Below, in pieces: positions 14,246 to 57,807 of a DNA stretch of 64,000 bases. Under the pieces are notes generated by a model that did not search any database, had not been told where the DNA came from, and was given only the letters and a program-made list of their open reading frames with translations. The position numbers were made by a program, and so were the translations under genes. This stretch comes from an uncultured Candidatus Saccharibacteria bacterium (GTDB lineage Bacteria; Patescibacteriota; Kazan-3B-28): the NCBI GenBank assembly GCA_964434605.1, contig CAYSVM010000002.1, positions 47 through 64,046 of the forward strand, read 5' to 3'. Each line of letters begins with the position of its first letter. Positions within the stretch are counted from its first letter, which is position 1.

Positions 14246-14638
14246 ATGTTGAGAGGTGGAACTATTTTGCGCGTTATTATTACGACAAACCAAGATACCC
14301 TTGGAATTATTTGTTTTTTCCTTGGGCATCATAAAGATCTCCTCAATGCAGAGGAAGTTGTAATCACCCTAACGGGAAACAGGGTGATTATGGGAAAAAT
14401 CACGAAAGAAGCTGCGCCAAGTCAGCTTATCGTGACAACTCCCATCAACGACATGTTAAACCAGGAGATATGGGTGAGGATCTCCGACATTGTTCGCATC
14501 CAAGCGAAAAATGTCGATATCAGCATCCAACCGGGAACAGTAAGTAGTATCAAGTTCCCAATTGGATCAGATATCCTACCTCCACCTCCTCCTGGGAGAA
14601 AACATTTGGAAACAGATGAGCTTCCGTTTCCAAGATAA
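14246..14638 (+). CDS. hypothetical protein (130 aa)
   Basis: ORF with poly-Pro C-terminus; followed by terminator hairpin at 14655-14698. Confidence 0.35.
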   Translation: MLRGGTILRVIITTNQDTLGIICFFLGHHKDLLNAEEVVITLTGNRVIMGKITKEAAPSQLIVTTPINDMLNQEIWVRISDIVRIQAKNVDISIQPGTVSSIKFPIGSDILPPPPPGRKHLETDELPFPR

Positions 14639-14654
14639 CCCCCACCAACCGAGC

Positions 14655-14698
14655 AAAGGGCGCTAGACAGCAATGTCGGCGCCCTTTCCATTTCTCTT
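14655..14698 (+). terminator. rho-independent terminator
   Basis: aaagggcgc-(15 nt loop)-gcgcccttt hairpin then ccatttctctt. Confidence 0.6.
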
Positions 14699-14725
14699 GA
14701 CTGGAAGCATAAAATCTAGTAGTAT
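14697..14725 (+). promoter_or_regulatory. near-consensus sigma70 promoter (TTGACT-17-TAGTAT)
   Basis: -35 TTGACT at 14697-14702, 17-nt spacer, -10 TAGTAT at 14720-14725; drives the 14730-15270 unit. Confidence 0.6.
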
Positions 14726-14799
14726 CTAACCTATCTAAAGGTGCTTTTGCCTGGAGTACCTTGTACCTATAACTAGGAAATCTGCCAAAGGGGGCACGA

Positions 14800-15132
14800 A
14801 TGGAATTGGATGCTCGACTGCTGGTAACGAGAGCGCAAGCGATCGTAACTGGCAAAGAAGAAAAGGTCAATGTCCCCCTTCCCAAGGGAGGGGAACTGCA
14901 AATGTTTGTACTGGATAGTATATTCCTGTGTATGACAACAGAAAAAACAGGAAGACAGGTGCATAAGTATTCTGTACCTGTAAGCAATTTTTTCATGGAG
15001 GGCGTAAAGGAAAGCTTTACAGCTTTCCTAACAGAGTCCCTGAAGCAAAGGAACCCCGATGCTACAGTTCCCATATTGGTCATACCGATATGGAGACAGC
15101 GAAGCGGTCGGGGAGCCGATCGGTTCGACTAG
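14800..15132 (+). CDS. hypothetical protein (110 aa) inside a GC-rich promoter-to-terminator unit, or part of a ncRNA
   Basis: AAAGGGGG SD-like sequence 5 nt before ATG; protein has no recognisable family; the locus is unusually rich in G/C runs and hairpins, so coding status is uncertain. Confidence 0.3.
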   Translation: MELDARLLVTRAQAIVTGKEEKVNVPLPKGGELQMFVLDSIFLCMTTEKTGRQVHKYSVPVSNFFMEGVKESFTAFLTESLKQRNPDATVPILVIPIWRQRSGRGADRFD

Positions 15133-15224
15133 CTCTTCACCTCAGCACCATCAGGCAAGGTGCTGAAAGCCCCGGCGGAGGATTGGGTAGAGCCCCCTTC
15201 AAGTAGGGAAAGAAGGGGACAATC

Positions 15225-15270
15225 GGGGCTGAACGTGGTAGTAATACCACATCCAGCCCCTTTTCTTTGT
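15225..15270 (+). terminator. strong rho-independent terminator
   Basis: ggggctgaacgtggtagtaataccacatccagcccc perfect hairpin followed by ttttctttg. Confidence 0.8.
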
Positions 15271-15516
15271 GCAAATTATTTCAAATAAAAATACTGTAAT
15301 TGTCAAACAGTCCTCTAAGACCCAAGTAGGGGAGTTGGAATAACTTGGTAACTCAACAATTTTTACAACAATTATTAGAAACAAATAACAAACATCTATA
15401 TACAAAACAAATAGAACAAATTCAAAACTACAAAAACACTACCACCTCATTAGAATAGGCAACGTCGCACAATGTATCTTGTGCGACATTATATAAGGAG
15501 TACAGGAAGAAGCCCT

Positions 15517-15903
15517 CTAAGCCGGATCTACAGGGATTCTAAAATAATTGAATAACTTTTGCTTATCTTCCCCCTGAATACGACTACGAATTTTCCAATT
15601 TATTTTAGTTGCACTACTCCACACCACCGCCCTAGGCTCTATCTCCAATCTTCCGACCTCAGATACCTTTATAGCCAAATACAGGTCTTCTGGGGCAAAT
15701 AAAAGGCCTAGTTTCTGACTTAGTTGTACAAACGGTTCTAATCCTCCAATACTTTCATAAACCTCTGTTCTAATTGCAAAGTTTGCTCCCCAAAAATATT
15801 TGAACCGTTTTGGCGCATAAATATTTTTTAACCAAAAGAAATCTAGACTCATCAAAAAGGGCCTTAGGCCTCCTCGGAGCCAGACTCCCCCACCAACAGC
15901 CAA
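15517..15903 (-). pseudogene. truncated family-2 glycosyltransferase (C-terminal fragment only)
   Basis: 128 aa ORF; GANFAIRTEVYESIGGLEP resembles the GT2 (GA/NMAFRREvfe.vGGFde) C-terminal region. The N-terminal DXD-containing half is absent because an unrelated gene abuts at 15960. Confidence 0.5.
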
Positions 15904-15959: not shown

Positions 15960-16484
15960 TTACCCCTCCGCCTGAATTACCGCATTCTCAATTGCCGCCC
16001 AATGTGAATCATCTATACCTTCAGGTATCAGAATAGTCACCTGGTCACCCGGAGTAAGTTTGAAATAGGTTACAGAAGCTAATAACACAGCGTAGGATTT
16101 TCCACCCGCTACCACTTTGTATTCATCATTCTCGTAAACTAGAGTACCAAGAAGTTTCTTGCGATCAACCGGACCAATTTGCTTGAAAACAAATGAACCA
16201 TCTTCTTGGATAGTTAGTTTCAACACATCCCCTACTACCAGCTTAGATTTACTAGCATAGTTAGCAGGAACTGGATATTTCTTGCCATCCTTATCCAACA
16301 TATATTGGCCATCAAATACGCCTTCTACAACATTACCTTCAGATTTCAGGTGCACGGCCTTACCCGTTACATCATCAAATTGGACACCCAACAGATCTGT
16401 TAGTACCTGCTTAGCGGTCGCCAAATTAGCAGTTGCCGTCTCCAACAACTGTTTCACCATTTCGATTTTAGATTTGTCTGCCAT
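15960..16484 (-). CDS. hypothetical protein (174 aa), last gene of the T4CP-like operon 1
   Basis: 43 nt downstream of the 807-aa ATPase on the same strand; no recognisable domain. Confidence 0.5.
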   Translation of the reverse strand: MADKSKIEMVKQLLETATANLATAKQVLTDLLGVQFDDVTGKAVHLKSEGNVVEGVFDGQYMLDKDGKKYPVPANYASKSKLVVGDVLKLTIQEDGSFVFKQIGPVDRKKLLGTLVYENDEYKVVAGGKSYAVLLASVTYFKLTPGDQVTILIPEGIDDSHWAAIENAVIQAEG

Positions 16485-16526
16485 TTTTATTTCCTTTCTT
16501 TTTTACTTGTATTTTAGCTGACGGAA

Positions 16527-18950
16527 TTATATCTCATTATCTGGTTCCTGTAAACCCCGACCAGGTAAACCAGTATTTTTCGCATACTTAATTCGCTCAC
16601 CTACTTGCATCTCCACAATTCTCTTATCTTTTCCAAATTTTAGGCGTGATAACTGCTTAATTGCCTCTCCAATCTTTATATTCGACTGTCCCATGGGAGC
16701 AGGTGCTTGAAGTGTAAATGGACGACTAGCCATACCGTCGATCATAAGTTTTACGTATGCATTCCTATTCTCTATGTTTATCAGATCATTCTGGCTTACA
16801 TCTGGTTCAAATTGTTTCCCAATCGTCTCTGCATCTGGTGCACCAATTGTGAAAGCAATTAGCGAACCAACGTTGCCAAATACAGCATCGCGAATCTTTT
16901 CTTCCAGCTGTGCTACAAACTGATGAGCAATAATAAGATTCAATCTGTATTTACGAGCTTCGGAGAGAATCGTTGCAATAGATTCAGTTGTAACATTCTG
17001 GAACTCATCGATATATAAATAGAAATCATTACGAGAATTCTCTGCCATATCTGCCCTAGAAAGTGCTGCCATCTGCATTTTGGATACGAGAATAAAACCA
17101 AGCAAGTTGCTATTTATTTCTCCAGTCAAACCTTTAGCTAGATTTACCAACAGAATTTTTTTGTTGTCCATCACCTCACGGATGTCGAAAGAACTCTTTG
17201 CTTGTCCGACAATATTCCGCATCATTTCGTTGCTGATAAATCGCCCAATTTTACTAATAATGTATGAGAACAACTCCCCTACCTGATTACTTTTTTCCGC
17301 TTGGGCAAACTCTTCTTTCCAAAAACGCAAAACTGTTGGATCTGTAACATTCACCAACTTTGCTTCCCTAAATGCCTTATCTGTGAAAACTCTTGGAATA
17401 TCTATCAACGTAGCACCTGTTTCATCTGCCAAAAGCAGTAACATTGCGTTACGCATATAGTGTTCAAAAATTGGTCCCACAATCCCAGAACTATTCGGAT
17501 CGAACAACTTATAAAATATGGCTATCATTTCAGACACCACTATATCCTTTTCTGCAGGTGTAGTTGCTTCCAGCAGGTTCAATCCCAATGGCCTACTAAT
17601 ATCTGGCGGATAGAAATGAATTACATCATCCACTCGTTCTTTTGGAATCCTTTGCAAGAGCCACTCAATCATATCTCCATGAGGGTCAATCACACACACT
17701 CCTTGGCCATCGATAATATCCTGGAATGCCATGTTCTGCATCCAAGTAGTTTTACCTGTACCAGTTTTACCAATTACATAGATATGTCTACGCCGATCAT
17801 CTGTTTCCATCCGAACCAGTTTTTCCATACCCCGGTAAACATTCTTACCGAGTAAAATCCCCTGTTTTGGTAAATTCTCTGGTGCAGGAAGCCTCTTTGC
17901 TTTCAACCAACGAATATTTGGAGTCTCTGTCTTTACTCCAGGCAAATGAAAAACTGTAGCCAACTCTTCTGTATTAAAAATAAATGAATTTCTAGGATCA
18001 CCAAACTGACGCAAGATATAGTCTTTCAAGACTTCCATCTCTGGATATTTCGCTACTGTCAAACCATTTAATTCGGGCGCATTGAACTGTAAAAAGCTGT
18101 CTATCAATGTTTTCAGATGACCCTTTGCTTGATTTTCATCCGGTGCAGTTGCAACCAACCGGATAACTGTTTCAAAACCAGATTTTGTTGCTTTAGTTTC
18201 AATTGCCCGGACAACATCTTCCTGTCCTGCAGTAATTTGCTTCTGTTCTGGTTGTTTTCCATCTTTACTGGTAGGTGTCACCAGCTCACCTAGCCCTTTC
18301 AAAACGCCTTCGCTAATAGATGAATTGGATTTTCCTTGCTGCAGGGTTTTTGCGACTGCATGCGCTTGTTTCGTCCATTTCTTGCCATCAATCGGTCTAA
18401 ACATTATCTGAATCCCCGCTCCTGCCCCCTGATCCGCCAGTTTACTCATTGCATTAGTAAGTGCCGAAAGTCCATCTATTTGCAAATTCGCATAAGTACG
18501 AATTGGGAAATAGTTTGGCTTCTTCAGCGTCAACTGGACGCTGGCAATCTTTGCATCTGACGGGAAAAAGTTCGGATATGGTGCCCTCTCAACGACCGCA
18601 TCTGGGTATTGGGAAGTAATTTGTTTTTCCAAAAAGTCTATCAAACTTACAGGTACAGTAGCATAAAAAGTAATCAATTCCTGTTCGGTAGCAATTTCAA
18701 AAGTCAGATGCCGATTCCCCACCGCATCTGCAATACCCGCCAGATTACTGAAAATAGTTTCCATTGGCGCAATAATCGCCTTAATATCCGGTGTCTGTCC
18801 TTCCTCTTTTGGCCGTGGGACTGCAATCATCAAATTCACCCGACTCCGTACGTCATCAGGTCCCCTCTTAGACTTCCTTTGTGATAACCAAAACCAACCG
18901 ATACCGGCCAAAACAATAACCACCCCCAATCCTAAATAAAAACCTGCCAT
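16527..18950 (-). CDS. type IV coupling protein-like ATPase (TrwB/TraD/VirD4 family), paralog 1
   Basis: 807 aa; one N-terminal TM helix and a ~390-aa N-domain. Walker A VIGKTGTGKTT is followed by VIDPHGDM (compare TrwB GTGKS...IVDPNGDM). Walker B YLYIDEFQN and a post-Walker-B HQFVAQL...GNVGSLIAF..DAET block match the TraG-D_C/T4CP pattern. ATG overlaps the stop of the upstream 126-aa gene (ATGA). Confidence 0.7.
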   Translation of the reverse strand: MAGFYLGLGVVIVLAGIGWFWLSQRKSKRGPDDVRSRVNLMIAVPRPKEEGQTPDIKAIIAPMETIFSNLAGIADAVGNRHLTFEIATEQELITFYATVPVSLIDFLEKQITSQYPDAVVERAPYPNFFPSDAKIASVQLTLKKPNYFPIRTYANLQIDGLSALTNAMSKLADQGAGAGIQIMFRPIDGKKWTKQAHAVAKTLQQGKSNSSISEGVLKGLGELVTPTSKDGKQPEQKQITAGQEDVVRAIETKATKSGFETVIRLVATAPDENQAKGHLKTLIDSFLQFNAPELNGLTVAKYPEMEVLKDYILRQFGDPRNSFIFNTEELATVFHLPGVKTETPNIRWLKAKRLPAPENLPKQGILLGKNVYRGMEKLVRMETDDRRRHIYVIGKTGTGKTTWMQNMAFQDIIDGQGVCVIDPHGDMIEWLLQRIPKERVDDVIHFYPPDISRPLGLNLLEATTPAEKDIVVSEMIAIFYKLFDPNSSGIVGPIFEHYMRNAMLLLLADETGATLIDIPRVFTDKAFREAKLVNVTDPTVLRFWKEEFAQAEKSNQVGELFSYIISKIGRFISNEMMRNIVGQAKSSFDIREVMDNKKILLVNLAKGLTGEINSNLLGFILVSKMQMAALSRADMAENSRNDFYLYIDEFQNVTTESIATILSEARKYRLNLIIAHQFVAQLEEKIRDAVFGNVGSLIAFTIGAPDAETIGKQFEPDVSQNDLINIENRNAYVKLMIDGMASRPFTLQAPAPMGQSNIKIGEAIKQLSRLKFGKDKRIVEMQVGERIKYAKNTGLPGRGLQEPDNEI

Positions 18951-18953
18951 TTA

Positions 18954-19334
18954 TTAATTATTTTCAGCCCCGTTATCACCCATAAACCTAGTTAGTTTAC
19001 CAGCTACTTCAGCTACTATATTACCCTTTACTGCTATATCAATCGTCTTTCGTAAATCAGCAACGGTCAAAATAGTCTGAGATGATTTCGAGCCTGGAGA
19101 CTCATTACTAGATTGCTGCTTGAAATACATTTCCGCTTCAGCATCCAGACCAGCCGTCATCTCGTTGAAACTCTCCGGATCTTGAAACTCAGTTGTCCCA
19201 CCAGATTCGGCGACTCTATTAAGTTTCTCTACTACCCCCCTTTCTTCTGACTTTGTAAGTTCCACACCGAATACCCCACCCGCTTGGGATTCTCTTCGTC
19301 TAATCCATTCTGGTGAAGGTTTTCTTTTGTTCAT
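18954..19334 (-). CDS. hypothetical protein (126 aa), translationally coupled to T4CP-like ATPase 1
   Basis: Stop overlaps the start of the 807-aa gene; consensus promoter immediately upstream; no recognisable domain. Confidence 0.5.
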   Translation of the reverse strand: MNKRKPSPEWIRRRESQAGGVFGVELTKSEERGVVEKLNRVAESGGTTEFQDPESFNEMTAGLDAEAEMYFKQQSSNESPGSKSSQTILTVADLRKTIDIAVKGNIVAEVAGKLTRFMGDNGAENN

Positions 19335-19368
19335 AAAGAATAATTTTAGTTTCTAATCTTATTTTTGT

Positions 19369-19397
19369 ATTATACCATACTTTTATTACAGTGTCAA
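19369..19397 (-). promoter_or_regulatory. consensus sigma70 promoter (TTGACA-17-TATAAT) for the 126aa/T4CP-like/174aa operon
   Basis: Minus strand reads TTGACActgtaataaaagtatggTATAAT; the -35 overlaps the last codons of gatB. Confidence 0.65.
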
Positions 19398-20792
19398 TAT
19401 CCTATTCAAAATATCCTGTGCCAGAGCGGGTTCTGCTTGTCCCTTACTCTTTGCCATTATTTGTCCCATTAGGAAGCCTTTTACCCGTTCATCCCCCGCT
19501 TTTACCTTAGCAACTATTTCAGGATTGTCATCAATTACTTGTTTCACTATCTTTTCTAAGTCTTCTTCGCTCAAAAACTTTAATTCACCAACTAATTCTG
19601 CAGGTGTCTTTTTGGTCTTTGTAATCAAGTCATAAAGTTTCTGTGCAGAACTTCCTGATAACTTATTCGCCATCACCACTCCAATAAAATCAGTAAATGT
19701 TTTTTCTCCCACAAATTCTTTCGGCAACCAGTTCGCCACTAGTATCGGATCAAAGTTGTTGTTCTCCGTCATTACATTCACAAGCTCTGCTAATTTATCC
19801 AAATCCTGCAATTCACTCACCCGTGCATATGGCAAACCAAATTCTTCCGCCTTCAATCGCAACGTAGACGGAAGTAGTGGTAAATCAGCACCAATTTCAT
19901 CAATCTTTTCTTTTCCTATCGTAATAGAAGGCAAATCAGGCTCTGGAAAGTACCTATAATCCACCGAACCTTCTTTGCTCCGCTGCGAAATAGTTGTGCT
20001 AGACTTTTCATCCCATCCTCGAGTCTCCATTTCAATCCGCTCACCTTTTTCGAGCATCTCTACTTGTCTTTCAATTTCATACCGAAGAGCCTGTTCCATA
20101 AAGCGGAACGAATTCATGTTCTTCACTTCCACCTTACTACCCAGGGCGTCTTGTCCCAGTGGTCGTACCGATACATTAGCATCCACCCTCATATGCCCCT
20201 TTTCCATATCCGCCCTAGATACACCTAGCATACGCACCACCCTTTGTAATTCCTGTAAGAATGCTCTAGCTTCTTCTGGTGATTTAATATCTGGCTCTGT
20301 CACAATCTCCATTAGTGGCGTACCACAACGATTCAAATCCACCAGAGTCGCATCTTTGGCATGTACTAATTTCCCCGCGTCTTCTTCCAAATGAATTCGA
20401 GTAATCCCAACCGAAAATTCTTTTTTCGTCTTTCTGTCCCCTGCTAAATAATCCACCTTCAGGTTGCCTTTTTCACCAACGGGATAAAAAAACTGTGAAA
20501 TCTGGTAACCCTTGGGAAGATCTGGGTAGAAATAATTCTTGCGATCGAATCTCTGCATGGGATTTATCGAACAACCTAGGGCAATTGCAGTTTTTATTCC
20601 CCAATCAATTGCCTGTTCATTCATTACCGGCAACACTCCGGGATATCCCATACATACAGGACAAACATGAATATTTGGTTCAACATTTTCTGAATTGTTA
20701 TCACAACGACAAAACATCTTGGATTTTGTATCCAATTGCACATGGATCTCTAGTCCTATCGTCGCCTCATATTTCTCTATCGCTGTATTCAT
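19386..20792 (-). CDS. gatB: Asp-tRNA(Asn)/Glu-tRNA(Gln) amidotransferase subunit B
   Basis: 468 aa; N-terminal YEATIGLEIHVQL and C-terminal GatB/YqeY domain. Confidence 0.9.
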   Translation of the reverse strand: MNTAIEKYEATIGLEIHVQLDTKSKMFCRCDNNSENVEPNIHVCPVCMGYPGVLPVMNEQAIDWGIKTAIALGCSINPMQRFDRKNYFYPDLPKGYQISQFFYPVGEKGNLKVDYLAGDRKTKKEFSVGITRIHLEEDAGKLVHAKDATLVDLNRCGTPLMEIVTEPDIKSPEEARAFLQELQRVVRMLGVSRADMEKGHMRVDANVSVRPLGQDALGSKVEVKNMNSFRFMEQALRYEIERQVEMLEKGERIEMETRGWDEKSSTTISQRSKEGSVDYRYFPEPDLPSITIGKEKIDEIGADLPLLPSTLRLKAEEFGLPYARVSELQDLDKLAELVNVMTENNNFDPILVANWLPKEFVGEKTFTDFIGVVMANKLSGSSAQKLYDLITKTKKTPAELVGELKFLSEEDLEKIVKQVIDDNPEIVAKVKAGDERVKGFLMGQIMAKSKGQAEPALAQDILNRILTL

Positions 20793-21208
20793 AACACTCT
20801 CAATTGCCTCAAACTATCTTTAAAAAATCTAATCGCTCTTTCTGCCTCATGCCGTGCCAATTTCGCATCCACCTCATGAGCCAAATGGTTACGTAACTTG
20901 TGTGCATCCCATGCCACCTGCACATTACTAAACAAATGCTTACTGTTTTTTAATCTCTCTCCCAAATTTGCACCAGATACATTCTTTAGAGTTAGCACAT
21001 AATCTAAAATCTTATCCGCTTCAAATACTGCCTTCACCCAAGACGCTTCTCTTTCATCTGCCATTAGCAACTCAACGTTATTCCAAAGCTCATGAATTTT
21101 TTGCCGTTCATTTTCAGAAATAAGCTGTCGCTTACCAGAAAGATAGAAAATAAGTCCAAATGCTATCCCGGCAATCACCAATACAACTAGCAAGAAATAG
21201 ATCATCAT
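20789..21208 (-). CDS. hypothetical membrane-anchored protein inserted between gatA and gatB
   Basis: 139 aa; N-terminal TM helix; start and stop overlap both neighbours by 4 nt. Confidence 0.5.
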
Positions 21209-22557
21209 CTTATTCTCTCGTAAGCATCTGCCACTTTTAATATGGTTGGTTCATCAAACTGCTTCCCCATAACCTGTAATCCCACCGGCATTCCATCCAC
21301 TTTTCCGCAAGGAACAGATATTGCCGGCAACCCCGCTAGACTTGCAGGAGTAGTAAGCAAATCCGCCTGATACATCTCTAAGGGATTGTCTGCCTTTTCG
21401 CCAATCTTGAATGCAATAGTTGGAGTAGTTGGTGAAAGTATTACATCCACTTTTTTGAAAGCCTCATCAAAATCTTGCTTAATAAGCGCCCTTACCCTTT
21501 GAGCCCTGTCATAATACGCATCCCTAAATCCCGCAGATAAAGTATATGTCCCAAGCATAATTCTCCTTTTCACTTCTGCACCAAACCCTTCTGCCCTTGT
21601 TGTGAAATACATCTTAATTAAATCTTCTACCTTGTCATCTGCACCAGTAGAAAGACCATACCGAACTCCATCATATCTACTTAAATTAGCCGAAACTTCT
21701 GCTGGCTGAATAATGTAATAAGTCGCCAATGCATATTTAGAATGTGGCAAACTAACTTCCACAATCTCCGCTCCCACATCTTTCAATTTACCTATCGCCT
21801 CATTAACTGCCTCCGCCACTTTTCCGTCCACCCCTTCTGCAAAATATTCTTTTGGTACGCCGATCTTTACGCCTTTCACATCCCCATCTAGAAATGCTAA
21901 ATAATCTGGAACAGAAATATCTACTGTTGTAGAATCATGTTCATCTTTCCCCGCAATTACCTGCAAAACTTTTGCTGCATCCAAAACCGTATTGGTAATT
22001 GGACCAATCCTATCCAAAGAGCTTGCCATTGCAACTAAACCATATCTGCTAACGCGACCATATGTTGGCATTAGCCCCACTACACCGCAAAAGCTGGCTG
22101 GCTGACGAATAGAACCACCTGTATCACTCCCTAATGCAAAAGGCACTATCCCAGCCGCTACCGCAGCCGCAGAACCACCCGAACTACCTCCTGGTACCCG
22201 AGTAGGATCAACTGGATTCTTTGTCGTTCCAAAAGCAGAATTCTCTGTCGAGGAACCCATAGCGAATTCATCTAAATTAAGCTTTCCCGCAATCCACGCT
22301 CCTGCCTCTTTCAGTTTTGTAATTACAGTTGCCTCGTACGGAGAAACAAATTTCTCCAACATTTTGGAAGCACAAGTGGTGGGATATTCTATCGTCGCAA
22401 TGTTGTCTTTAATAAAACAGGGCACACCCAATTCGCCTTTCCCTAACTTGCCCGCTTTATCCGCAATCGACAACAAAAAATGAAACTTCTTGTCTGCTTC
22501 TCTAGCGCCCTCAAGAAACTCTTCCAAATCTATCTTCTTCGCCTCTGCAATATCCAT
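21205..22557 (-). CDS. gatA: Glu-tRNA(Gln) amidotransferase subunit A
   Basis: 450 aa; amidase signature [14 protein letters not shown] and Ser-cisSer-Lys triad context. Confidence 0.9.
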
Positions 22558-22560
22558 ACC

Positions 22561-22872
22561 CTAATCTCTATTGAATACACTCTTCACTTTTATATACCCC
22601 TTCTCACTCGCAGGAGCTTGTTTCAAAAACTCTTCTCTGGTTATTTCACTTTTCTCAACATAGTCTCCTGCCATTACATTATTTAGTCCTGTAATCTGCC
22701 CACCCACACTAGAATCACCATCCACTGTATTCGTATCCACTTTCTGCAGTTCGCTTACATATCCCAAAACTGCCGACAACTCTTCGGCATACTTCTGGCT
22801 CTCTGCCTCACTTAGCTCGATCCGAGCTAACAGCGCGATATGCTCCACCTCTTCTTTTGGTAACCTATCCAT
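22561..22872 (-). CDS. gatC: Glu-tRNA(Gln) amidotransferase subunit C
   Basis: GatC core MDRLPKEEVEHIALLARIELSEAE...; start assigned to the internal Met (ORF-track ORF extends to 22977 through a non-GatC leader). Confidence 0.75.
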   Translation of the reverse strand: MDRLPKEEVEHIALLARIELSEAESQKYAEELSAVLGYVSELQKVDTNTVDGDSSVGGQITGLNNVMAGDYVEKSEITREEFLKQAPASEKGYIKVKSVFNRD

Positions 22873-22989
22873 ATGGCTATTATACCTGATAAAATTCCCC
22901 ATTACGGGAGCGGATTTCCCCCTTGCTCTCGGGGGGGTAGTGCTATATTGTAGGCGTATTGTAATCATCCAAACCAAAGGAGGTAACGG

Positions 22990-23727
22990 ATGAGAACCTT
23001 GAAATTGACAGTGGCGTTCATCGTCTTGATAGCGCTACTCTTTGCGGGATGGCTTGTAGCCTCCCACTCAACCACCCAACTGGCCTACACCAAATCGGCA
23101 AACACAAACCCAGTCATTGGCAAGACCGCAACAAGTCTTGCCACCAACCCTAACATGCCAAAGGGATTTGTAGATGTAATCTACAAAATCCCCGGCAAAC
23201 CAGCATGGCCAAGCCAGCTGAAGGAAGCGAACATATACATCAGCGTATATGTTCAAGGAAATCTGCCGGACACCCTGAAGAGTGATCCTGCCTTTGATGA
23301 TTTTTACACCCAAATTATGATTGGGCGTAACTATCAGGTGCTGAAGAGGGACGAACTCGATAGACCAATCCAGTACACTTTTACTGGAGGAAACTATCAG
23401 ATTAGAAGCGGTACACCATATCGCTTCGGTGGCGGGATACTACTGGAAATTCCGCCAGTAGTTGCCAGTGACGACCCCAATGTCGTTGGTAACTGGAACA
23501 ATCTCATCAACCGCGAGTGGTGGGATTATACAATGCGAGATCTAGACTCGTTCAAGCCCTACATCCTAAAGGCATCCAAGGATTGGGCAGGTCTGGCTGA
23601 TGTCCCGCATCGGCTAGCAGCGAGGACAATGATGGAACTAGCTAGGTCCATTGAACGTAAGCGCTTTACTGTAGCGTTTGGTGTTCAGGATGGACCACTT
23701 ATTGCAAAACCTCAACCAACAAGATGA
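22990..23727 (+). CDS. hypothetical secreted/anchored protein (245 aa)
   Basis: AAAGGAGG RBS; N-terminal signal/TM; GC visibly higher than neighbours; strong terminator follows at 23744-23780. Confidence 0.5.
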   Translation: MRTLKLTVAFIVLIALLFAGWLVASHSTTQLAYTKSANTNPVIGKTATSLATNPNMPKGFVDVIYKIPGKPAWPSQLKEANIYISVYVQGNLPDTLKSDPAFDDFYTQIMIGRNYQVLKRDELDRPIQYTFTGGNYQIRSGTPYRFGGGILLEIPPVVASDDPNVVGNWNNLINREWWDYTMRDLDSFKPYILKASKDWAGLADVPHRLAARTMMELARSIERKRFTVAFGVQDGPLIAKPQPTR

Positions 23728-23743
23728 ACCTTAGACAACCACC

Positions 23744-23780
23744 GCCCTAGCGCATCCGTGCGTTAGGGCTTTTTTATTTC
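23744..23780 (+). terminator. rho-independent terminator
   Basis: gccctagcgcatccgtgcgttagggc hairpin + ttttttatttc. Confidence 0.8.
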
Positions 23781-23797
23781 TTTTTCAATCTCAAAAA

Positions 23798-23826
23798 TTG
23801 ACACCCAGCCTAAAAATCTCTAATCT
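23798..23826 (+). promoter_or_regulatory. candidate sigma70 promoter (TTGACA-17-TAATCT)
   Basis: -35 perfect, -10 weak; upstream of the 23869 gene. Confidence 0.4.
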
Positions 23827-23868
23827 GAAGGTGATTATTGTACCCTACCAAGAAGGAGGACTACGCCG

Positions 23869-24318
23869 ATGAAGGTCTTTGTGCGAGACCTGCGAATCGA
23901 TGGAGTTACTGTCCATCGTAACCAAGACAAGGAAAGTAGCATAGGCATAGTAGCAGGAATGGACGATGGACGACGAACTGCAATAGTAAACGCAATTCGT
24001 AAACAAAAAGAAGTCGTATTCGAAATTTTTGGCACGTTAGGATGCCAAAACTTCGATTTCATCGGAGCACTCGAGAAGGTGCTCGACGAGATCGAGAGTT
24101 TCGGAAAGGCTCCGTGGGTAAACACTATCGTCATGCTTGACGATGTGGTAACCCGCGAGAGCTATGATCGCATTAAGATGCTTTTTCCAGAGTTCGAGCT
24201 CGAACCGAAGGAAAAAAGCATAACTATCGTCTCAACTAGGCGACAACCAATCATTTGGACTACCAAGTCCTTACGTGACAAGTTGTCGTTAGTCGCGACG
24301 GTATCTCCATCGGCCTAA
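23869..24318 (+). CDS. hypothetical protein (149 aa)
   Basis: AAGGAGG RBS; no recognisable family; elevated GC. Confidence 0.5.
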   Translation: MKVFVRDLRIDGVTVHRNQDKESSIGIVAGMDDGRRTAIVNAIRKQKEVVFEIFGTLGCQNFDFIGALEKVLDEIESFGKAPWVNTIVMLDDVVTRESYDRIKMLFPEFELEPKEKSITIVSTRRQPIIWTTKSLRDKLSLVATVSPSA

Positions 24319-24508
24319 CGGTCTCATCTGTTCTTTTCTTGCGCCGACTTTGGAGCAACTACCAGAGTCACGCAATATATACGACAACCCCCTGCCGAAA
24401 GGCGGGGGGTTTCCCTATGTCCAATATTATCCGCTCTGGAAGCTGATAATCTTGACATTTCTCCCTTTTAGGAGTAAGCTACCCATATCCTTTTACAGGA
24501 GGTACTTT

Positions 24509-24943
24509 ATGTCCCCTAGCGCAACCTTCTTAGTTTTGGGTTCGCTGCTGTGGGTTTTTGTAGCCCACTTTGCGTTATCAAGACTACATCACTGGTTTTT
24601 CCGAGTGATGTCAGTCTTCGCTCTCGGCAGCTTCTTCTGTCTGATATCCCAACATCGGCCAGAAGAAATGTCCCCACACATTTTGTGGGTCACGCCGCTT
24701 GTCGGTCTGATCATCGTACTCTGGAGTATGGTGATCCGACTGGACAAAAGAGCAATCATCAGTTTTCTCATTGGAGCACTGGTGATTGGTCTGGCCGTTT
24801 GGGCAACAAATGCCCAAACACAACCAGACTCGATAACATATCAGCTCCCCTCAAAACAGGAGCTGACAGCACCCGATCCTACTGAACCACCGGGCATTAG
24901 TAGAGTGTTTCTCTACAAAATGTACCATGGTGAAGATCAGTAG
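24509..24943 (+). CDS. hypothetical membrane protein (~144 aa)
   Basis: AGGAGG RBS before internal ATG at 24509 (the ORF-track start at 24350 lacks an RBS); four hydrophobic helices; terminator at 24978-25008. Confidence 0.45.
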   Translation: MSPSATFLVLGSLLWVFVAHFALSRLHHWFFRVMSVFALGSFFCLISQHRPEEMSPHILWVTPLVGLIIVLWSMVIRLDKRAIISFLIGALVIGLAVWATNAQTQPDSITYQLPSKQELTAPDPTEPPGISRVFLYKMYHGEDQ

Positions 24944-24977
24944 GCTGGTCGGGCTAGGAGGAAAGGTAGAAAGAATT

Positions 24978-25008
24978 AGCCCCGCACACGTTGTGGGGCT
25001 TTTCTCTT
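24978..25008. terminator. rho-independent terminator, likely bidirectional (island genes on + and ligA on -)
   Basis: agccccgcacacgttgtggggct hairpin followed by tttctctt on + and by aattctttc on -. Confidence 0.65.
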
Positions 25009-25015
25009 GTCTAAA

Positions 25016-29748
<4,733 letters not shown>

Positions 29749-29771
29749 TCTATTCCAAAAAATTTGTTAAA

Positions 29772-30908
29772 TTATTTCTCTTCCGAAACCAGGGTATAGC
29801 TATTTTTATCAACTCTACGAAATAACTTCTTATTCTGTAAATTAGCAATAACTGTATTCCTTTTTACTTCTCTATCCTTCAACACCGCTTCAATCACTTC
29901 TTCCACCGCTAGAGGTTTACCCGCTTGCTTCATTACCTTGATTATTACATCCGCAACCGCTCCTGGCTGGTACCCTTGTTCTCTAAGGGCATATATGCCT
30001 CTACCCACCAAGACGAACCTGGTATCACCAATAAGTTCATTATGCACCGTCCTACTCAATACCGTCTTCCCCCCAATAAACGTTTGGTTGATTGCATCAG
30101 CAATGTCTCTGAAATGCATTGGCTTTCCAAATTTCTGCAAAACAAGAAAGATTTTGTCACGTATCCTTTTTGGAACAACCGTTGGCCAAGCCACTAATCC
30201 CCACTCTCCACTTTCGGTCTGTGCTAACTTTGCTCCCACCAATAATATCCCATGAACAATACTCGGAGTAAGACGAGCACTATTGTCTGCATAAACTGGG
30301 GTATCTGTCAGTTTTCCCCACAATACATCTTCTGTTACTGGCTTACCTAGATTGACTAAAATCTTTTCTATTTCATCTAAAACTTTTATTACCAAGCCCA
30401 TAGAGGCATTCTTTTTTGCCCAACCAACATGGAACATATCTTCTTTGGGCAAACCAACTACATTGTTATCCAGCGCTACCGTTAAACGCAGGGCATTTAG
30501 TTCCGCTTCTCGTCTCTGATCATTCCCAATCTTAAAATATTCCGCTAATCCAGCCAGAGACATCACTCCTCCCATTTCTAAAAGATAGCTGTTTACAATC
30601 TTCAACAGTTTCGCCAAATCTTTAGTAGGCTTTTCTGCTAGTTTCTTTATTGCAGAATTCTCAACCTGACGAGCACGTTCTCTTGTAACACCAAACTTAG
30701 AACCGATCGCCTCTAAAGTAAGCTTATTGCCATCTTCTAATCCAAACCTTCCCAAGAGCACTTCCCTTTCCCGATCCTTTAGCGAATTAACAGCACTAAT
30801 TACAACCACTAATGGGTCCAGTGCTTCACGGGTCTTTTCCTCTTGTTCCACCATTATTGATTTAATGACGGAACTAGAATCTTCCTGGTTGTAGTTATCC
30901 TCCTCCAT
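29772..30908 (-). CDS. DNA-binding protein with sigma-70 region-4-like HTH and a C-terminal HARE-HTH-like domain
   Basis: 378 aa; LKDREREVLLGRFGLEDGNKLTLEAIGSKFGVTRERARQVENSAIKKL resembles sigma70 region 4. C-terminal MHFRDIADAINQ...TVLSRTVHNELIGDTRFVLVGRGIYALRE resembles the HARE-HTH / RNAP delta-subunit N-domain. First gene of an operon with T4CP-like paralog 2 and ligA. Confidence 0.55.
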   Translation of the reverse strand: MEEDNYNQEDSSSVIKSIMVEQEEKTREALDPLVVVISAVNSLKDREREVLLGRFGLEDGNKLTLEAIGSKFGVTRERARQVENSAIKKLAEKPTKDLAKLLKIVNSYLLEMGGVMSLAGLAEYFKIGNDQRREAELNALRLTVALDNNVVGLPKEDMFHVGWAKKNASMGLVIKVLDEIEKILVNLGKPVTEDVLWGKLTDTPVYADNSARLTPSIVHGILLVGAKLAQTESGEWGLVAWPTVVPKRIRDKIFLVLQKFGKPMHFRDIADAINQTFIGGKTVLSRTVHNELIGDTRFVLVGRGIYALREQGYQPGAVADVIIKVMKQAGKPLAVEEVIEAVLKDREVKRNTVIANLQNKKLFRRVDKNSYTLVSEEK

Positions 30909-30940
30909 CTAAATTCCTCTCACCCCCTTACAACTGTCCC

Positions 30941-30970
30941 GATTATATCATACAAGCCTTTATTTGTCAA
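30941..30970 (-). promoter_or_regulatory. consensus sigma70 promoter (TTGACA-18-TATAAT) for the HTH/T4CP-like/ligA operon
   Basis: Minus strand reads TTGACAaataaaaggcttgtatgaTATAAT, ~35 nt upstream of the 378-aa gene start. Confidence 0.65.
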
Positions 30971-55161: not shown

Positions 55162-56196
55162 TTATCCCTGTTTTCCCCAGTCATCTATAAGCCAAGCTTC
55201 TCCCTGCTTCAACAACCCAAATTCCCAAATCTCCGTCACTGTTTTCTCGTCTGGCGTCTTCTTTTCTAATTGTCCTACTATCGTTGCTTTACTCAAGTCC
55301 TCTGGAACAGTTGTATTAGTCACTCTAAATCCGGTAACATCCGAAGATTCTTCCACCACTACGGGACTAAAATCCTTTTTTGCACCAGTAGTAAGCTTGG
55401 CAGACATTCCCTCTGCATCCCTGTTCCCCCATGCCTGCACGAACTGAGCTACTGCTTGTTCCGATGCCTGTTTCACCGCATTCTGCTGTTCTGTCATTGT
55501 CCTATTCTCTCCAATCTTCTTACCCAGTAATGCATCTAAGTCTGCTGGGATACTGAAAATTGATCTCGAAAGTTTTGCTTCAACAATCCCATTTCCTGCT
55601 AGAAGCAGTTCGTCATATGACTTGGAAGCTTGTTCTCCTGCAGCCTTCAAACTATCTAAATCTTTTTTGTCTGTAATATCTACTGCTCTTCCCATTATTT
55701 GTTTCAATGCCAGTAGCATTGCACTATAGTCTTCCAAGAAACTACTCAACTTACTGGCAGCAGTACTAGCCTTGATATTCAATCCTGTCACTGCCTTGAT
55801 GTCATACAGTCCATCTCTAACAGACTGATTTGTAGTATTTACCACCTGCACGACCGATCCACTACTGGTATCTCCGAGTTTATCGAAGGTATCTATCCTA
55901 TCTAATCGAGTGAGCAAAATATTAGTATCTGCGACCGTATCACTCCAAATTTGTTTCAACTTTTTTTCACCAGCCGTACCTTGGCTCTGGAAAGTGTAGT
56001 AATAGTAGGAAGCAAGTCCTCCTACTAAAACGATAATGATCCCACCAAAAATAGTGAGCAATAAACCCAGCGTTTTTGGACGACGATAACGCTTCATTTC
56101 TTTGGTTTCTGCCTCTATTTCTTCGGCCTCGTTATCAGTGATTTCTTCCTCGAACTTCATCCTCTCTACTATATCTGAAAAACTCCCCTTTTTCAA
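55162..56196 (-). CDS. hypothetical membrane-anchored protein (344 aa)
   Basis: Acidic N-terminus, one TM helix, large extracytoplasmic domain; no family. Confidence 0.45.
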   Translation of the reverse strand: MKKGSFSDIVERMKFEEEITDNEAEEIEAETKEMKRYRRPKTLGLLLTIFGGIIIVLVGGLASYYYYTFQSQGTAGEKKLKQIWSDTVADTNILLTRLDRIDTFDKLGDTSSGSVVQVVNTTNQSVRDGLYDIKAVTGLNIKASTAASKLSSFLEDYSAMLLALKQIMGRAVDITDKKDLDSLKAAGEQASKSYDELLLAGNGIVEAKLSRSIFSIPADLDALLGKKIGENRTMTEQQNAVKQASEQAVAQFVQAWGNRDAEGMSAKLTTGAKKDFSPVVVEESSDVTGFRVTNTTVPEDLSKATIVGQLEKKTPDEKTVTEIWEFGLLKQGEAWLIDDWGKQG

Positions 56197-56227
56197 GACA
56201 GTTTTACTTGTTCAAAAAAGCGAAAAA

Positions 56228-57022
56228 TCAGACTCTTTTCGTCTCCTCCAGAGCTTCTCGCATAAACCGTGCTATCTGTCTGCTTACAGCCGGTTTAATC
56301 CCCCTAGTATCTGCATGACGACTAAGTACTCGCATGATTTTTCCATAAGGAAAAATCTCCATAAAATCTGTCTCATTCTTTCTTAATACAAATGGATCCG
56401 AAACTTTGTCTCTAGTATTTAAAAGCAATGCCGGAACTTGCGCAAACCTATACTTCACAATCCAATCTTGACGTAAGATGTATCCCATCCGAATAGCATT
56501 AATGGTCTGCTTGAGCGAACTATCTTTGGCATAAAATTTAGCGTAACCAAAACTAAACTGCCACACAAACTTTAGCGACTGGACTATCGTCACCATCATC
56601 CTCCGAGTATGCCTATCTAGTGTCGCACCGAAACCTAACTCAACTTGTGAACGGAGAGTAAGATTAGTCGGTTCAAAAGGCGTAGACATAGCCACAAACG
56701 CAACTAATCGCACTCCCACCCCATGCTTACGCCAATAACGTGCCAAAAGATATGCCACAGTACCCCCAAAAGACATCCCTAATAAAATAACTTGTTTGTA
56801 TCCCAGCCTCTTTACCGCACTAGTTGCAGTTTGGTAGAGATCGTAGATATCAATATCCTTATCCGGATAACGAAATTCGAATACATCACCAAAGCGAGAA
56901 AAAAGATTAGCTTCCCCCATAAGATCCGAATAAGTGGGGATAAGCCCCGGAAACATCAAGACAGCCGTATCCGCACGACGATTTCTCTTTTTCACTAATT
57001 GAAAACACAACTGCTTCGGCAT
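56228..57022 (-). CDS. alpha/beta hydrolase fold protein
   Basis: 264 aa; nucleophile elbow GMSFGG (GxSxG). Confidence 0.6.
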   Translation of the reverse strand: MPKQLCFQLVKKRNRRADTAVLMFPGLIPTYSDLMGEANLFSRFGDVFEFRYPDKDIDIYDLYQTATSAVKRLGYKQVILLGMSFGGTVAYLLARYWRKHGVGVRLVAFVAMSTPFEPTNLTLRSQVELGFGATLDRHTRRMMVTIVQSLKFVWQFSFGYAKFYAKDSSLKQTINAIRMGYILRQDWIVKYRFAQVPALLLNTRDKVSDPFVLRKNETDFMEIFPYGKIMRVLSRHADTRGIKPAVSRQIARFMREALEETKRV

Positions 57023-57024
57023 TA

Positions 57025-57546
57025 CTATTTATCCAACCTGCGTAGTCTAACCGCTGTTACCAACGCTGATGTAAAAATAACTGCCCCAACTACACAGCTA
57101 GTAAACTGCGGAATTCCAAAATATCCCGGTACACATCCAAGATTACAAACTTGGTCTCTATACAATCTCCCTAATTCATAACCATAATTGCCCCAGGCAA
57201 ATATTGCACCAAGACCAAGAAGCCAAATCAACCTATATTGACTCGCTTTACTGTAATCTATTCGCAAAGTAATTGACCACACCAAACCAACCAAGAAGAA
57301 TACAAAACCCCAGAAACATGGAGTAAGCAATGGATTCCACAAACTATCTGGAATCCGTACCACCATCCACGAACCGCCTACTGCAAAATACCGTATAACC
57401 TCATTTACCAAATTATACCCAGCAAAAATGACACCAACCAGCAAGAAGAAATTTTGCAAAACTAATAATTCTCTTTTCATAAACCGATTATACCAAACAT
57501 ACAAAACGGCCCGATAACTCGAGCCGTTTTGAATATATAAGTTCAC
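57025..57546 (-). CDS. hypothetical polytopic membrane protein (173 aa)
   Basis: Four to five TM helices, paired Cys residues. Confidence 0.4.
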   Translation of the reverse strand: MNLYIQNGSSYRAVLYVWYNRFMKRELLVLQNFFLLVGVIFAGYNLVNEVIRYFAVGGSWMVVRIPDSLWNPLLTPCFWGFVFFLVGLVWSITLRIDYSKASQYRLIWLLGLGAIFAWGNYGYELGRLYRDQVCNLGCVPGYFGIPQFTSCVVGAVIFTSALVTAVRLRRLDK

Positions 57547-57807
57547 TGAAGAAATAAAACTATTTCTTCTTAGCTTTCTTCTTGGCTTTCTTCTTTCCTG
57601 CCATGTTTTGGGTCCCCATGAACTTAATTGTTATAACATCTCTAATTATTAGCTCTCTATTCCATAAGTCAATAACCCTGAATGGGGATAAATCAAAAAC
57701 TATTATTCCCAAATTTTATCCCCCGTTTTCCACTTCCAAAAAGGAAAATATCCAGATTTCCCACCTCTCAAAAAACATTGACTGGAAAAAGATTTTTGCC
57801 TACCTAA

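Follow-up and report, generated by a model that had tools for sequence, protein, structure and literature searches.

The closest described systems to the two ATPases considered here, par1 and par2, are the coupling proteins known as T4CPs, among them TrwB of R388, TraD of F, VirD4, DotL and Cag-beta, which are the top sequence matches among solved structures. T4CPs and par1/par2 have in common a RecA-like motor with Walker A, DPxGD and Walker B motifs and an all-helical insertion, a TraG-D_C block, and membrane anchoring. They differ in that T4CPs have a two-TM N-terminal domain, whereas par1 and par2 have one TM helix and a 320-aa VirB4-like domain, stand without a relaxase or an adjacent T4SS, and are core chromosomal genes representing two ancient paralogs. 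The genes of Cag-beta and CagZ adjoin each other. Small partner proteins are likewise encoded alongside T4CPs, and Cag-beta and its regulator CagZ have been solved together in 8dol.

Other relatives, here termed DUF8128-type homologs, are found on the B. subtilis plasmid NZ_CP032854 (WP_121549396.1), in Bacillus phage SPO1 (gp27.4) and phage G (gp156), and, in a split form, on Natrinema plasmids. These mobile homologs share both the N-domain and the motor over 75-88% of the query at 20-28% identity, and they adjoin MOB_C/Replic_Relax relaxases, VirB4, TcpC and TcpE, none of which accompany par1 or par2. Downstream of the B. subtilis plasmid homolog come Replic_Relax, which corresponds to MOB_C (PMC5357655), TcpC, TcpE and a VirB4-like AAA_10 protein; in SPO1, the gene after gp27.4 is gp27.3, which encodes a Replic_Relax protein. 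Haloarchaea, in contrast to par1/par2, have the N-domain as a separate ORF; on a Natrinema plasmid this standalone DUF8128 ORF (hhalign probability 99.5%) adjoins a T4CP and a conjugal transfer protein.

In Patescibacteria, a recent survey counted 5,713 T4CP homologues in 2,918 of 3,035 genomes, with 148 of them near virB4 and almost no relaxases, and suggested exaptation for these homologues dispersed away from virB4 (Quinonero-Coronel 2025, PMC12102498). VirB4, nested in MPF_FATA, was reported in 2,417 of the same 3,035 assemblies, and some of those in Table S3 have a t4cp1 match and no VirB4 (PMC12102498). Nearly all ultra-small Patescibacteria carry the par1/par2 family as core chromosomal genes. 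As the literature already records this family (PMC12102498) and Pfam already has its N-domain as DUF8128, an earlier sequence-only reading of this DNA overstated its case in suggesting that the system may be undescribed.

Both genes lie in a 64-kb window, i.e., the whole stretch of DNA that was analysed, with the following features:

15960..16484, minus strand: p174, a 174-aa ORF, 42 nt downstream of par1
16526..16554, minus strand: promoter-like site ahead of p174, overlapping the end of par1 (TTTACA-17-TATAAT, 11/12)
16527..18950, minus strand: par1, an 807-aa membrane-anchored ATPase of the par1-type clade
16701..17858, minus strand: par1 ATPase core, residues about 365-750
17895..18860, minus strand: par1 N-domain, Pfam DUF8128, residues 31-352, with a VirB4/TrwK N-terminal-domain-like fold
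18870..18947, minus strand: par1 N-terminal TM helix, residues 2-27 (AF2 helix at 2-27)
18954..19334, minus strand: p126, a 126-aa small charged protein without a TM helix
19369..19397, minus strand: predicted promoter for p126-par1, perfect 12/12 TTGACA-17-TATAAT, extended -10 TG
25016..26998, minus strand: ligA, starting 8 nt downstream of par2
27007..29748, minus strand: par2, a 913-aa membrane-anchored ATPase of the par2-type clade, with a TM helix
27379-28551, minus strand: par2 ATPase, residues about 400-790
28594-29589, minus strand: par2 DUF8128, residues about 54-385
Within par2, minus strand: charged C-terminal tail, residues 791-913
29772..30908, minus strand: hare378, 378 aa, 23 nt upstream of par2
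30942..30970, minus strand: promoter ahead of hare378-par2(-ligA), perfect 12/12 TTGACA-17-TATAAT, extended -10 TG

BLASTP shows the two ORFs to be paralogs (E 1e-179), with 39% identity over 768 aa, and each has a single N-terminal TM helix and the motifs attributed to them earlier. Basic residues follow the helix in both, and for par1 the positive-inside rule predicts that the remainder of the protein is cytoplasmic. The N-domain that had been put at ~390 aa exists and measures about 320 aa. The par1 core comprises Walker A (GKTGTGKTT; GKSGTGKST in par2), the DPHGD block (VIDPHGDM; VVDPHGEY in par2), which the family profile aligns to IVDPNGDM of TrwB, an all-helical insertion (about 465-595), Walker B DEFQN (FYLYIDEFQN, with a ten-residue counterpart in par2), and a TraG-D_C-like block (AHQFVAQL...GNVGSLIAF; AHQYIAQL...GNVGTLVAF in par2).

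Judged by its sequence, this core is T4CP-like, as had been proposed. Both proteins pass the Pfam gathering thresholds for T4SS-DNA_transf, TrwB_AAD_bind, DUF87 and TraG-D_C, weakly, at 24-37 bits, and in NCBIfam the TraD and VirD4 models rank first, with a T4CP-family score of 53 bits versus a cut-off of 366. The family profile searched against solved structures finds TrwB (E 2.9e-8) and DotL (5e-6), ranks HerA much lower and lists no VirB4 chain, and Foldseek superposes the motor half on TrwB with TM 0.62-0.67 at 18% identity. In hhalign the entire motor (274 columns) aligns to F TraD, versus only 62 columns around Walker A for F TraC, and PHROG 5156 is matched by both proteins over almost their full length. 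VirB4/TrwK differ in that the par1/par2 motor sequence is nearer to T4CPs, VirB4 profiles barely register (TIGR00929, 20 bits versus 643), and par1/par2 have their own TM helix; moreover, related Patescibacteria genomes have a separate, bona fide VirB4 besides this family. HerA, FtsK and CedB belong to the same ATPase superfamily and give weak profile matches, but par1 and par2 lack a HAS-barrel, an FtsK alpha or gamma domain and a nuclease partner, and score far under the cut-offs.

In the relatives, par1-type and par2-type genes separate cleanly into two clades, and a long contig has a single gene from each; both clades are ancient, orthologous across Patescibacteria and accompanied by a partner of their own. 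The arrangements small protein-par1(-p174) and (topA..)-HARE-par2 recur across classes, and par1-p174-HARE-par2 is contiguous in L028, L031, L085 and L088. On the par1 side, the p126 ORF ends in TAA-TAA-ATG, 3 nt before par1, and a small same-strand ORF lies upstream of 68 of 84 par1-type genes at a median gap of 10 nt; homology between ORFs in this position is below detection by sequence across lineage groups. The product of p174, which occurs at +1 to +3 of 26 of 79 par1-type genes, has an N-terminal helix followed by a beta-rich stretch whose signature in the family alignment is VPANYASKSKLVxGDxLKLTI..DGSFIFKQIGP, and is without a match in Pfam, NCBIfam, PADLOC, PHROG or PDB. On the par2 side, hare378 combines sigma-70 region 4 (residues 40-91; Sigma70_r4) with a HARE-HTH domain (253-310), and 32 of 55 assessable par2-type loci have a HARE protein upstream of the ATPase gene.

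Of the neighbors emphasized in the sequence-only reading, the small ORF, p174 and the HARE protein are conserved in relatives, but gatCAB and ligA are not: their adjacency is seen only in four Kazan-type relatives among 160 related loci, and no gatB or ligA match stands beside par1 or par2 in the other 156. Fragments of gatA and gatC are nearby in L150, and in L001-L004 par2 and ligA are separated by further genes. In the window, par1 does adjoin the gatCAB cluster but not as part of its transcript; p126-par1 has its own promoter, with the -35 element within the last codons of gatB. The textbook promoter claimed for each operon is borne out by two perfect 12/12 sites, both with a spacer of 17, where our own arithmetic gives a chance expectation of ~0.006 perfect sites in this 16-kb stretch. 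The sigma70_r4/HARE-HTH protein before par2 and ligA 8 nt after it were correctly described, and ligA is probably co-transcribed with par2; since it was seen linked to par2 only in Kazan relatives, ligA counts as a passenger and not as a conserved component.

We give about an even chance to par1 and par2 being a domesticated, relaxase-less coupling-protein module, probably serving the patescibacterial T4SS, and "domesticated T4CP" is a fair label for them. They would be anciently duplicated, chromosomally fixed descendants of a T4CP from monoderm and archaeal conjugation systems, of the type with a VirB4-like N-terminal domain (DUF8128) that is normally paired with a MOB_C (Replic_Relax) relaxase. 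One TM helix would anchor each protein, with the DUF8128 domain and the VirD4-type motor on the cytoplasmic side, and both are presumably hexameric, by analogy with TrwB and VirB4. Loss of the relaxase would have left a substrate-recruitment (Dtr-like) module, composed on the par1 side of the upstream small charged protein, plus p174 in many lineages, and on the par2 side of the sigma-region-4 and HARE-HTH DNA-binding protein. Their likeliest job would be that of ATP-driven substrate receptors or energisers for a patescibacterial T4SS encoded elsewhere in the genome, onto which they may dock through the VirB4-like N-domain; epibiotic growth depends on this apparatus.

Southlakia epibionticum, from another Patescibacteria class, carries Tn-seq calls that bear on this proposal. 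From gene order and gene lengths, not sequence, we infer that SEML1_0142 is the par1-type and SEML1_0293 the par2-type ortholog: SEML1_0142 (with 0141) and SEML1_0293 (with 0294) reproduce the gene order and sizes of Saccharimonadia par1-type and par2-type loci, the former as small ORF-ATPase-two minus-strand genes-gyrB, and the annotations agree (TraM-recognition and T4SS DNA-binding proteins; sigma70_r4 and HARE-HTH). The T4SS cluster is essential, SEML1_0141, SEML1_0142 and SEML1_0294 (sigma4-HARE) are called ES, and SEML1_0293 is called NE (PMC10633639 Table S1); both ATPase genes are flagged as core, Patescibacteria-enriched families (Wang et al.). Several observations speak against a T4SS role, i.e., cells can do without the par2-type gene but not without the T4SS, T4SS genes are unlinked in the window and in 159 of 160 related loci, as are most homologues (148 of 5,713 near virB4), and a T4CP homologue is present in ~500 more assemblies than VirB4, an excess that MAG incompleteness could explain.

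A T4SS-independent DNA translocase, to which we attach a low but appreciable probability, would consist of membrane-anchored hexamers that import or export DNA or else process it at the membrane; for example, it could supply the missing motor for DNA uptake in natural transformation, the HARE-HTH/sigma4 protein then replacing the relaxase as DNA-recognition adaptor. The recurring neighbors (dnaX, gyrB, gyrA, topA, dprA) are DNA-metabolism genes, a further point against a T4SS role: dnaX or gyrB plus gyrA adjoin par1-type genes, and the proximity dprA-topA-..-HARE-par2 is seen in the window, in S. epibionticum (SEML1_0298, 0296, 0294, 0293) and in ~17 metagenome loci. However, dprA-topA adjacency is common in bacteria generally, and the linkage to gatCAB and ligA was seen only in Kazan relatives. 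The name ComFA is absent from the S. epibionticum annotation tables and none of the par2-type gene, comEC and dprA is essential, whereas the par1-type gene is essential and competence is not, and no channel partner is found among the nearby genes. The NCBIfam likeness to the archaeal DNA importers CedB and CedD is weak (23-36 bits versus cut-offs of 600-700), and, although the homologues are commoner than VirB4, their nearest characterised relatives operate with T4SS channels.

It is rather improbable that par1 and par2 are HerA/FtsK-like motors for chromosome maintenance, with a role at the membrane in segregation, repair or resolution and no relation to secretion. DUF87, the HerA central domain, is above its Pfam threshold, HerA structures are among the Foldseek matches, the PADLOC HerA and mad8 models match the motor half, DPAM places the SEML1_0142 motor in an FtsK ECOD domain, and replication/repair genes (uvrABC, mfd, ligA, topA, gyrA) are near in the window. 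Against this, the N-domain is VirB4-like, with no HAS-barrel, the FtsK_SpoIIIE Pfam model has no match, there is no nuclease partner, NurA-like or otherwise, the profile search places HerA far below TrwB, and S. epibionticum has a canonical essential FtsK, SEML1_0096.

Finally, an integrated conjugative element, prophage or defence island happening to fall in the window is a highly implausible reading, effectively refuted, despite the homologs on plasmids and phages and the PADLOC mad8 match, by uniform GC (0.40-0.45) and continuous skew across the region, 64 kb without integrase, relaxase, VirB4 or phage gene, distant tRNAs, a gene order kept in relatives at 70-79% identity, the spread of both clades over Patescibacteria classes with conserved partners, and the core status of the S. 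epibionticum genes (Wang et al.).

With uniform GC, conserved synteny and only housekeeping genes around par1/par2 in the window, the locus is not a mobile element, and the sequence-only reading was right that it is not conjugative, as it was about the T4CP-like core. Its statement that T4SS and relaxase genes are missing holds for the window only, where the roughly 45 ORFs tested include no gene for VirB4, a relaxase, an integrase or any further T4SS component, and tblastn queries with plasmid VirB4, TcpC and Replic_Relax find none either: the Kazan assemblies GCA_003484385.1 and GCA_003531415.1, which share the window synteny (L003, L004), are VirB4-positive (PMC12102498 Table S1). A T4SS link is also favored by a third clade of relatives, where the homolog in L159 adjoins PrgI/VirB3-like, VirB4-like and M23 peptidase genes.

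Two ORFs of the window, here called par1 and par2, are clear paralogs (39% identity over 768 aa, E 1e-179), and their translations contain all the motifs quoted for them in the sequence-only reading. Walker A is GKTGTGKTT in par1 and GKSGTGKST in par2, the DPHG block is VIDPHGDM and VVDPHGEY, and Walker B is LYIDEFQN and LYVDEFQN, respectively, while the block HQ..AQL....GNVG.L.AF is present in both. Each N-terminus consists of one hydrophobic helix with basic residues after it, from which the positive-inside rule predicts a cytoplasmic location for most of both proteins. The two promoters announced for this region were also recovered, as perfect sites at the starts of the units; we calculate that a scan of 16 kb would yield about 0.006 such matches by chance, and the two sites predict transcript starts near 19362 and 30935. 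The features are as follows:

16527-18950, minus strand: par1, 807 aa
27007-29748, minus strand: par2, 913 aa
19397-19369, minus strand: promoter TTGACA-17-TATAAT, perfect, extended -10 TG, ahead of the 126-aa gene, with its -35 in the last gatB codons
30970-30942, minus strand: promoter TTGACA-17-TATAAT, perfect, extended -10 TG, ahead of the 378-aa gene

The 126-aa and 174-aa ORFs that flank par1 are termed p126 and p174, and the latter has an 11/12 promoter-like site ahead of it. The p126-par1 junction reads TAA-TAA-ATG, and the promoter placement together with the tight junctions indicates that these two genes form a unit of their own beside the gat cluster, rather than lying inside it as was first proposed. 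The second transcription unit is probably composed of hare378 (the 378-aa gene, encoding a sigma-region-4 plus HARE-HTH protein), par2, and ligA, separated by gaps of 23 and 8 nt.

Regarding the family to which these proteins belong, both exceed the thresholds of the Pfam models T4SS-DNA_transf, TrwB_AAD_bind, DUF87, and TraG-D_C, weakly (24-37 bits), with a margin over the gathering scores of just 2-17 bits for T4SS-DNA_transf, TrwB_AAD_bind, and TraG-D_C; the NCBIfam TraD, VirD4, and TraG models all remain far under their cut-offs (best SXT_TraD, 53 bits vs 366). In a confident AlphaFold2 model of par1 (78 homologs, pLDDT 88), the motor half is predicted to be a nucleotide-binding domain of RecA type that resembles TrwB and is interrupted by an all-alpha domain; Foldseek aligns this modeled half to TrwB with a TM of 0.62-0.67 (normalised to TrwB length), 18% identity, and E about 1e-13, and a helical block occupies residues 465-595, between Walker A and Walker B. 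When the family profile was compared with solved structures, TrwB and DotL were matched, HerA was far behind, and no VirB4 chain was listed in this search of the PDB. At the level of profile alignments, the whole motor aligns to F TraD, and F TraC aligns only around Walker A.

The N-terminal half is of another kind. In type IV coupling proteins (T4CPs), the N-terminal TM domain typically has two helices and directly precedes the motor; here, a single helix and a 320-aa cytoplasmic VirB4-like domain are found instead. The family has a VirB4-type N-terminal domain, and the full-length par1 model aligns to TrwK/VirB4, whereas the VirB4 profile TIGR00929, whose cut-off is 643, reaches only 20.4 and 14.9 bits, and Pfam CagE_TrbE_VirB and AAA_10 find no match in par1 or par2. 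All 240 homologs listed, 45-100% identical to the window proteins, carry PF26449 (DUF8128, the Pfam name of this N-domain), and it is by this annotation of the homologs, not by their own scores, that par1 and par2 are assigned to the proteins combining DUF8128 with a TraD/DUF87-type ATPase; the N-domain profile recovers 4,928 representative clusters. On the basis of the Foldseek and profile alignments, par1 and par2 join a VirB4-type N-domain with a VirD4-type motor. The proposed affinity with T4CPs, as opposed to HerA, FtsK, or VirB4, therefore holds for the motor but not for the whole architecture, half of which is VirB4-like. As a separate observation, the motors (16701-17858 and 27379-28551) match the PADLOC model mad8, which represents a component of the MADS defence system, with 76 and 57 bits, more than any Pfam T4CP model reaches there.

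The spread of this architecture was traced by tblastn in phage and plasmid sequences, and the combination of N-domain and motor was found in Bacillus phages G, SPO1, and CP-51 and in 284 plasmid records, whose hosts include Bacillus, Streptomyces, Staphylococcus, Clostridium, haloarchaea, and Sulfolobus. Moreover, PHROG 5156, to which no function is assigned, matches both paralogs over nearly their full length (E 1e-82 and 3e-86). Downstream of the homolog on a B. subtilis plasmid come a Replic_Relax protein, TcpC, TcpE, and an AAA_10 ATPase of VirB4-like type, and in SPO1 the gene after gp27.4 is gp27.3, whose Replic_Relax product has been annotated with replication initiation by nicking. The MOB_C relaxases are the counterpart of Replic_Relax (PMC5357655); they are the commonest among the rare relaxases of Patescibacteria, and a t4cp gene lies near 39 of those relaxase genes (PMC12102498). 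On a Natrinema plasmid (L167:6890-11102) the N-domain is a separate ORF of 375 aa (hhalign probability 99.5%, E 9e-23) that overlaps the start of the T4CP gene, next to a large conjugal transfer protein; as it stands alone on haloarchaeal plasmids, the DUF8128 N-domain is a module separable from the motor. Because the combination of VirB4 N-domain and VirD4 motor is common to Bacillus plasmids and phages and to haloarchaeal plasmids, it is relevant to the evolution of coupling proteins from VirB4. A third, shorter clade of relatives was also found, with a member of 728 aa (L159:1752-10196) that adjoins, in divergent orientation, a PrgI/VirB3-like protein, a VirB4-like ATPase with P-loop_TraG and AAA_10 domains, and an M23 peptidase; it is one of the rare T4SS-linked copies. 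The phages concerned are large lytic Bacillus phages, in which the DUF8128 plus motor protein adjoins a MOB_C-like Replic_Relax nickase (SPO1, L166:92636-95356) or a protein annotated as VirB-like (phage G, L168, gp155-gp156).

Within Patescibacteria, several long contigs apparently hold one close homolog of each paralog, to judge by contigs of equal length, and the par1 and par2 clades are cleanly separated in a neighbour-joining tree (205 sequences), the rooting of which with mobile-element outgroups was ambiguous. Gene neighbourhoods were sampled at 160 loci, 80 of par1 type (species genomes) and 80 of par2 type (metagenomes), and the partner genes recur in position. A small same-strand ORF (median 145 aa, median gap 10 nt) lies immediately 5' of 68 of the 84 par1-type genes with a complete upstream neighbour; a p174 homolog occurs within three genes downstream in 26/79 loci; and the sigma-region-4 plus HARE-HTH protein precedes the par2-type gene in 32 of 55 assessable loci, with topA somewhat further 5' in about 17. 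In sequence, the small upstream proteins form at least four groups that show no similarity to one another (hhalign probabilities under 1% in all comparisons between lineage groups) and give no sign of common ancestry. Frequent neighbours of par1-type genes are dnaX and cysS, or gyrB and gyrA in Saccharimonadia. The genes are contiguous in the order par1-p174-HARE-par2 at four loci (L028, L031, L085, L088) and as par1-p174-par2 at four (L086, L087, L091, L162), and par2 immediately follows par1 at six (L006, L020, L089, L090, L093, L147), which suggests one ancestral module.

The p174 profile has no match among solved structures, and neither hare378 nor p174 shows a relation to Replic_Relax relaxases. 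Region 4 of hare378 (29772-30908, minus strand) matches that of primary sigma factors (SigA/RpoD) with E about 6e-17, on a par with many real sigma factors, and regions 2 and 3 are missing. At eleven loci (L129, L134-L136, L139, L142-L144, L146, L148, L149) the par2-type gene, translated with table 11, falls into neighbouring ORFs of about 450 and 570 aa, which probably reflects UGA-recoding lineages (code 25) and not true splits.

Patescibacteria, which live epibiotically on other cells, account for a large part of bacterial diversity. The family is not undescribed, as had been thought possible: it is already catalogued, though uncharacterised, in the survey of Quinonero-Coronel et al. 2025, which makes the basic observation less surprising. 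That survey reports 5,713 VirD4-type homologues in 2,918/3,035 Patescibacteria genomes, only 148 of them near virB4, against a total of 109 relaxases, and raises their exaptation as a possibility; VirB4, nested in MPF_FATA, is present in 2,417 genomes (PMC12102498). Its Table S1 lists as VirB4-positive both Kazan assemblies that hold the loci L003 and L004 (PMC12102498), and, since these loci have the synteny of the window, the genome of the window very probably encodes a T4SS elsewhere too.

In addition, the Tn-seq data of Wang et al. 2023 on the transformable species Southlakia epibionticum, whose putative par1-type and par2-type orthologs we identify by synteny and length, report as essential SEML1_0141 (139 aa), SEML1_0142 (1019 aa), and SEML1_0294 (sigma70_r4 plus HARE-HTH), and as non-essential SEML1_0293 (921 aa, with topA and dprA nearby); SEML1_0142, SEML1_0293, and SEML1_0294, but not SEML1_0141, are marked there as belonging to core, Patescibacteria-enriched families (PMC10633639). 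The order SEML1_0141-SEML1_0142, two minus-strand genes, gyrB is exactly the Saccharimonadia par1-type layout of the recovered loci. The non-essential t4cp of the 2025 paper seems to be SEML1_0293 only, and, many Table S3 genomes having a single t4cp1 match (PMC12102498), we infer that the t4cp1 profile often fails to detect the par1-type paralog. As the likely ortholog SEML1_0294 is essential, hare378 may act with RNA polymerase independently of par2.

The original observation is thus confirmed and its interpretation partly supported. The best-supported reading, to which we give an even chance, is that par1 and par2 represent a domesticated, relaxase-less coupling-protein (Dtr-like) module most likely serving the patescibacterial T4SS. 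The module would have its origin in monoderm and archaeal conjugation systems of the MOB_C and MPF_FATA type, the duplication would predate the divergence of the Patescibacteria classes, each copy retaining its own adaptor, and the module would feed or energise the T4SS, for which the N-domain, being VirB4-like, is a plausible docking surface. Genetic ties are scarce, with no relaxase or T4SS in the 64 kb and T4SS neighbours at 1/160 related loci (L159). This T4SS (SEML1_0006-0019) is essential in the one species tested by Tn-seq, S. epibionticum (PMC10633639), and the clades with their partners, the putative essentiality, and the VirB4-like N-domain offer testable handles on its substrate and coupling ATPase. 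The dispersed "T4CP homologues" resolve into two ancient clades that differ in their conserved partners, and one clade, with its small partner, is likely to be essential. Our literature search returned nothing on DUF8128, the SEML1 locus tags, or HARE-HTH in Patescibacteria, and in the literature searched we found no mention of a VirB4-like N-domain, of two clades with conserved partners, of a link to essentiality, or of kinship with MOB_C-associated elements.

A T4SS-independent DNA translocase, which we regard as unlikely, would fit the DNA-metabolism genes found as neighbours and the presence of homologues in more assemblies than VirB4; the adjacency to gatCAB and ligA, first taken as wiring, was found in only four of the sampled relatives, all of Kazan type. 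Equally doubtful is a self-contained, relaxase-free membrane translocation system independent of the T4SS, made of par1, par2, p174, the sigma4-HARE-HTH protein, and the small acidic partner; it would be universal among Patescibacteria and essential in part, and in it a conjugative coupling protein that retained a VirB4-like N-domain (a possible VirB4-VirD4 intermediate) would have taken on the transport of DNA or some other macromolecule in the service of epibiotic life. A maintenance motor of the HerA/FtsK type is improbable: generic DUF87 alone passes among the HerA-related models, the N-domain is VirB4-like instead of a HAS-barrel, NF040819 scores 15.8 bits against 970, and Pfam detects no FtsK/SpoIIIE motor or gamma domain. 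Replacement of FtsK was likewise discarded, as S. epibionticum has a separate, canonical, essential FtsK.

Very improbable, finally, is a mobile-element origin of this locus, and a mobile element or defence island was dismissed given the flat GC content of the window, its tRNA positions (two tRNAs being the only Rfam matches), and its lack of mobile-element genes. As claimed from the outset, the 64 kb contain no T4SS or relaxase and the locus is not a conjugative element: the tested ORFs include no VirB4, relaxase, integrase, or phage gene, and tblastn found nothing when VirB4, TcpC, and Replic_Relax proteins of plasmids served as queries. The remaining ORFs tested are all housekeeping genes (among them mfd, pth, der, gatCAB, ligA, uvrA, uvrB, uvrC, topA, dprA, infB, an S1-domain protein, gyrA, cysS, trmD, and rnc) or lack a Pfam match, and the closest homologs of par1 and par2 are labeled candidate division Kazan or Patescibacteria. 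The locus is chromosomal.

Other parts of the window deserve mention. Between gatA and gatB, and sharing 4 nt with either gene, lies an ORF (20789-21208, minus strand) for a protein of 139 aa with a TM helix at its N-terminus; it keeps this position in the Kazan relatives L001-L004 and belongs to no Pfam family, with faint N-terminal similarity to EzrA and ATP-synthase b only. Between gyrA and tRNA-Gln (55162-58937, minus strand), ORFs of 344, 264, 173, and 213 aa stand in a row, none with a Pfam match. Between mfd and p174 (14246-15903), ORFs overlap on both strands with no Pfam or Rfam match, and one of 128 aa (15517-15903) may be a gene remnant, as it resembles the C-terminal part of the GT2 glycosyltransferase found there in L001.
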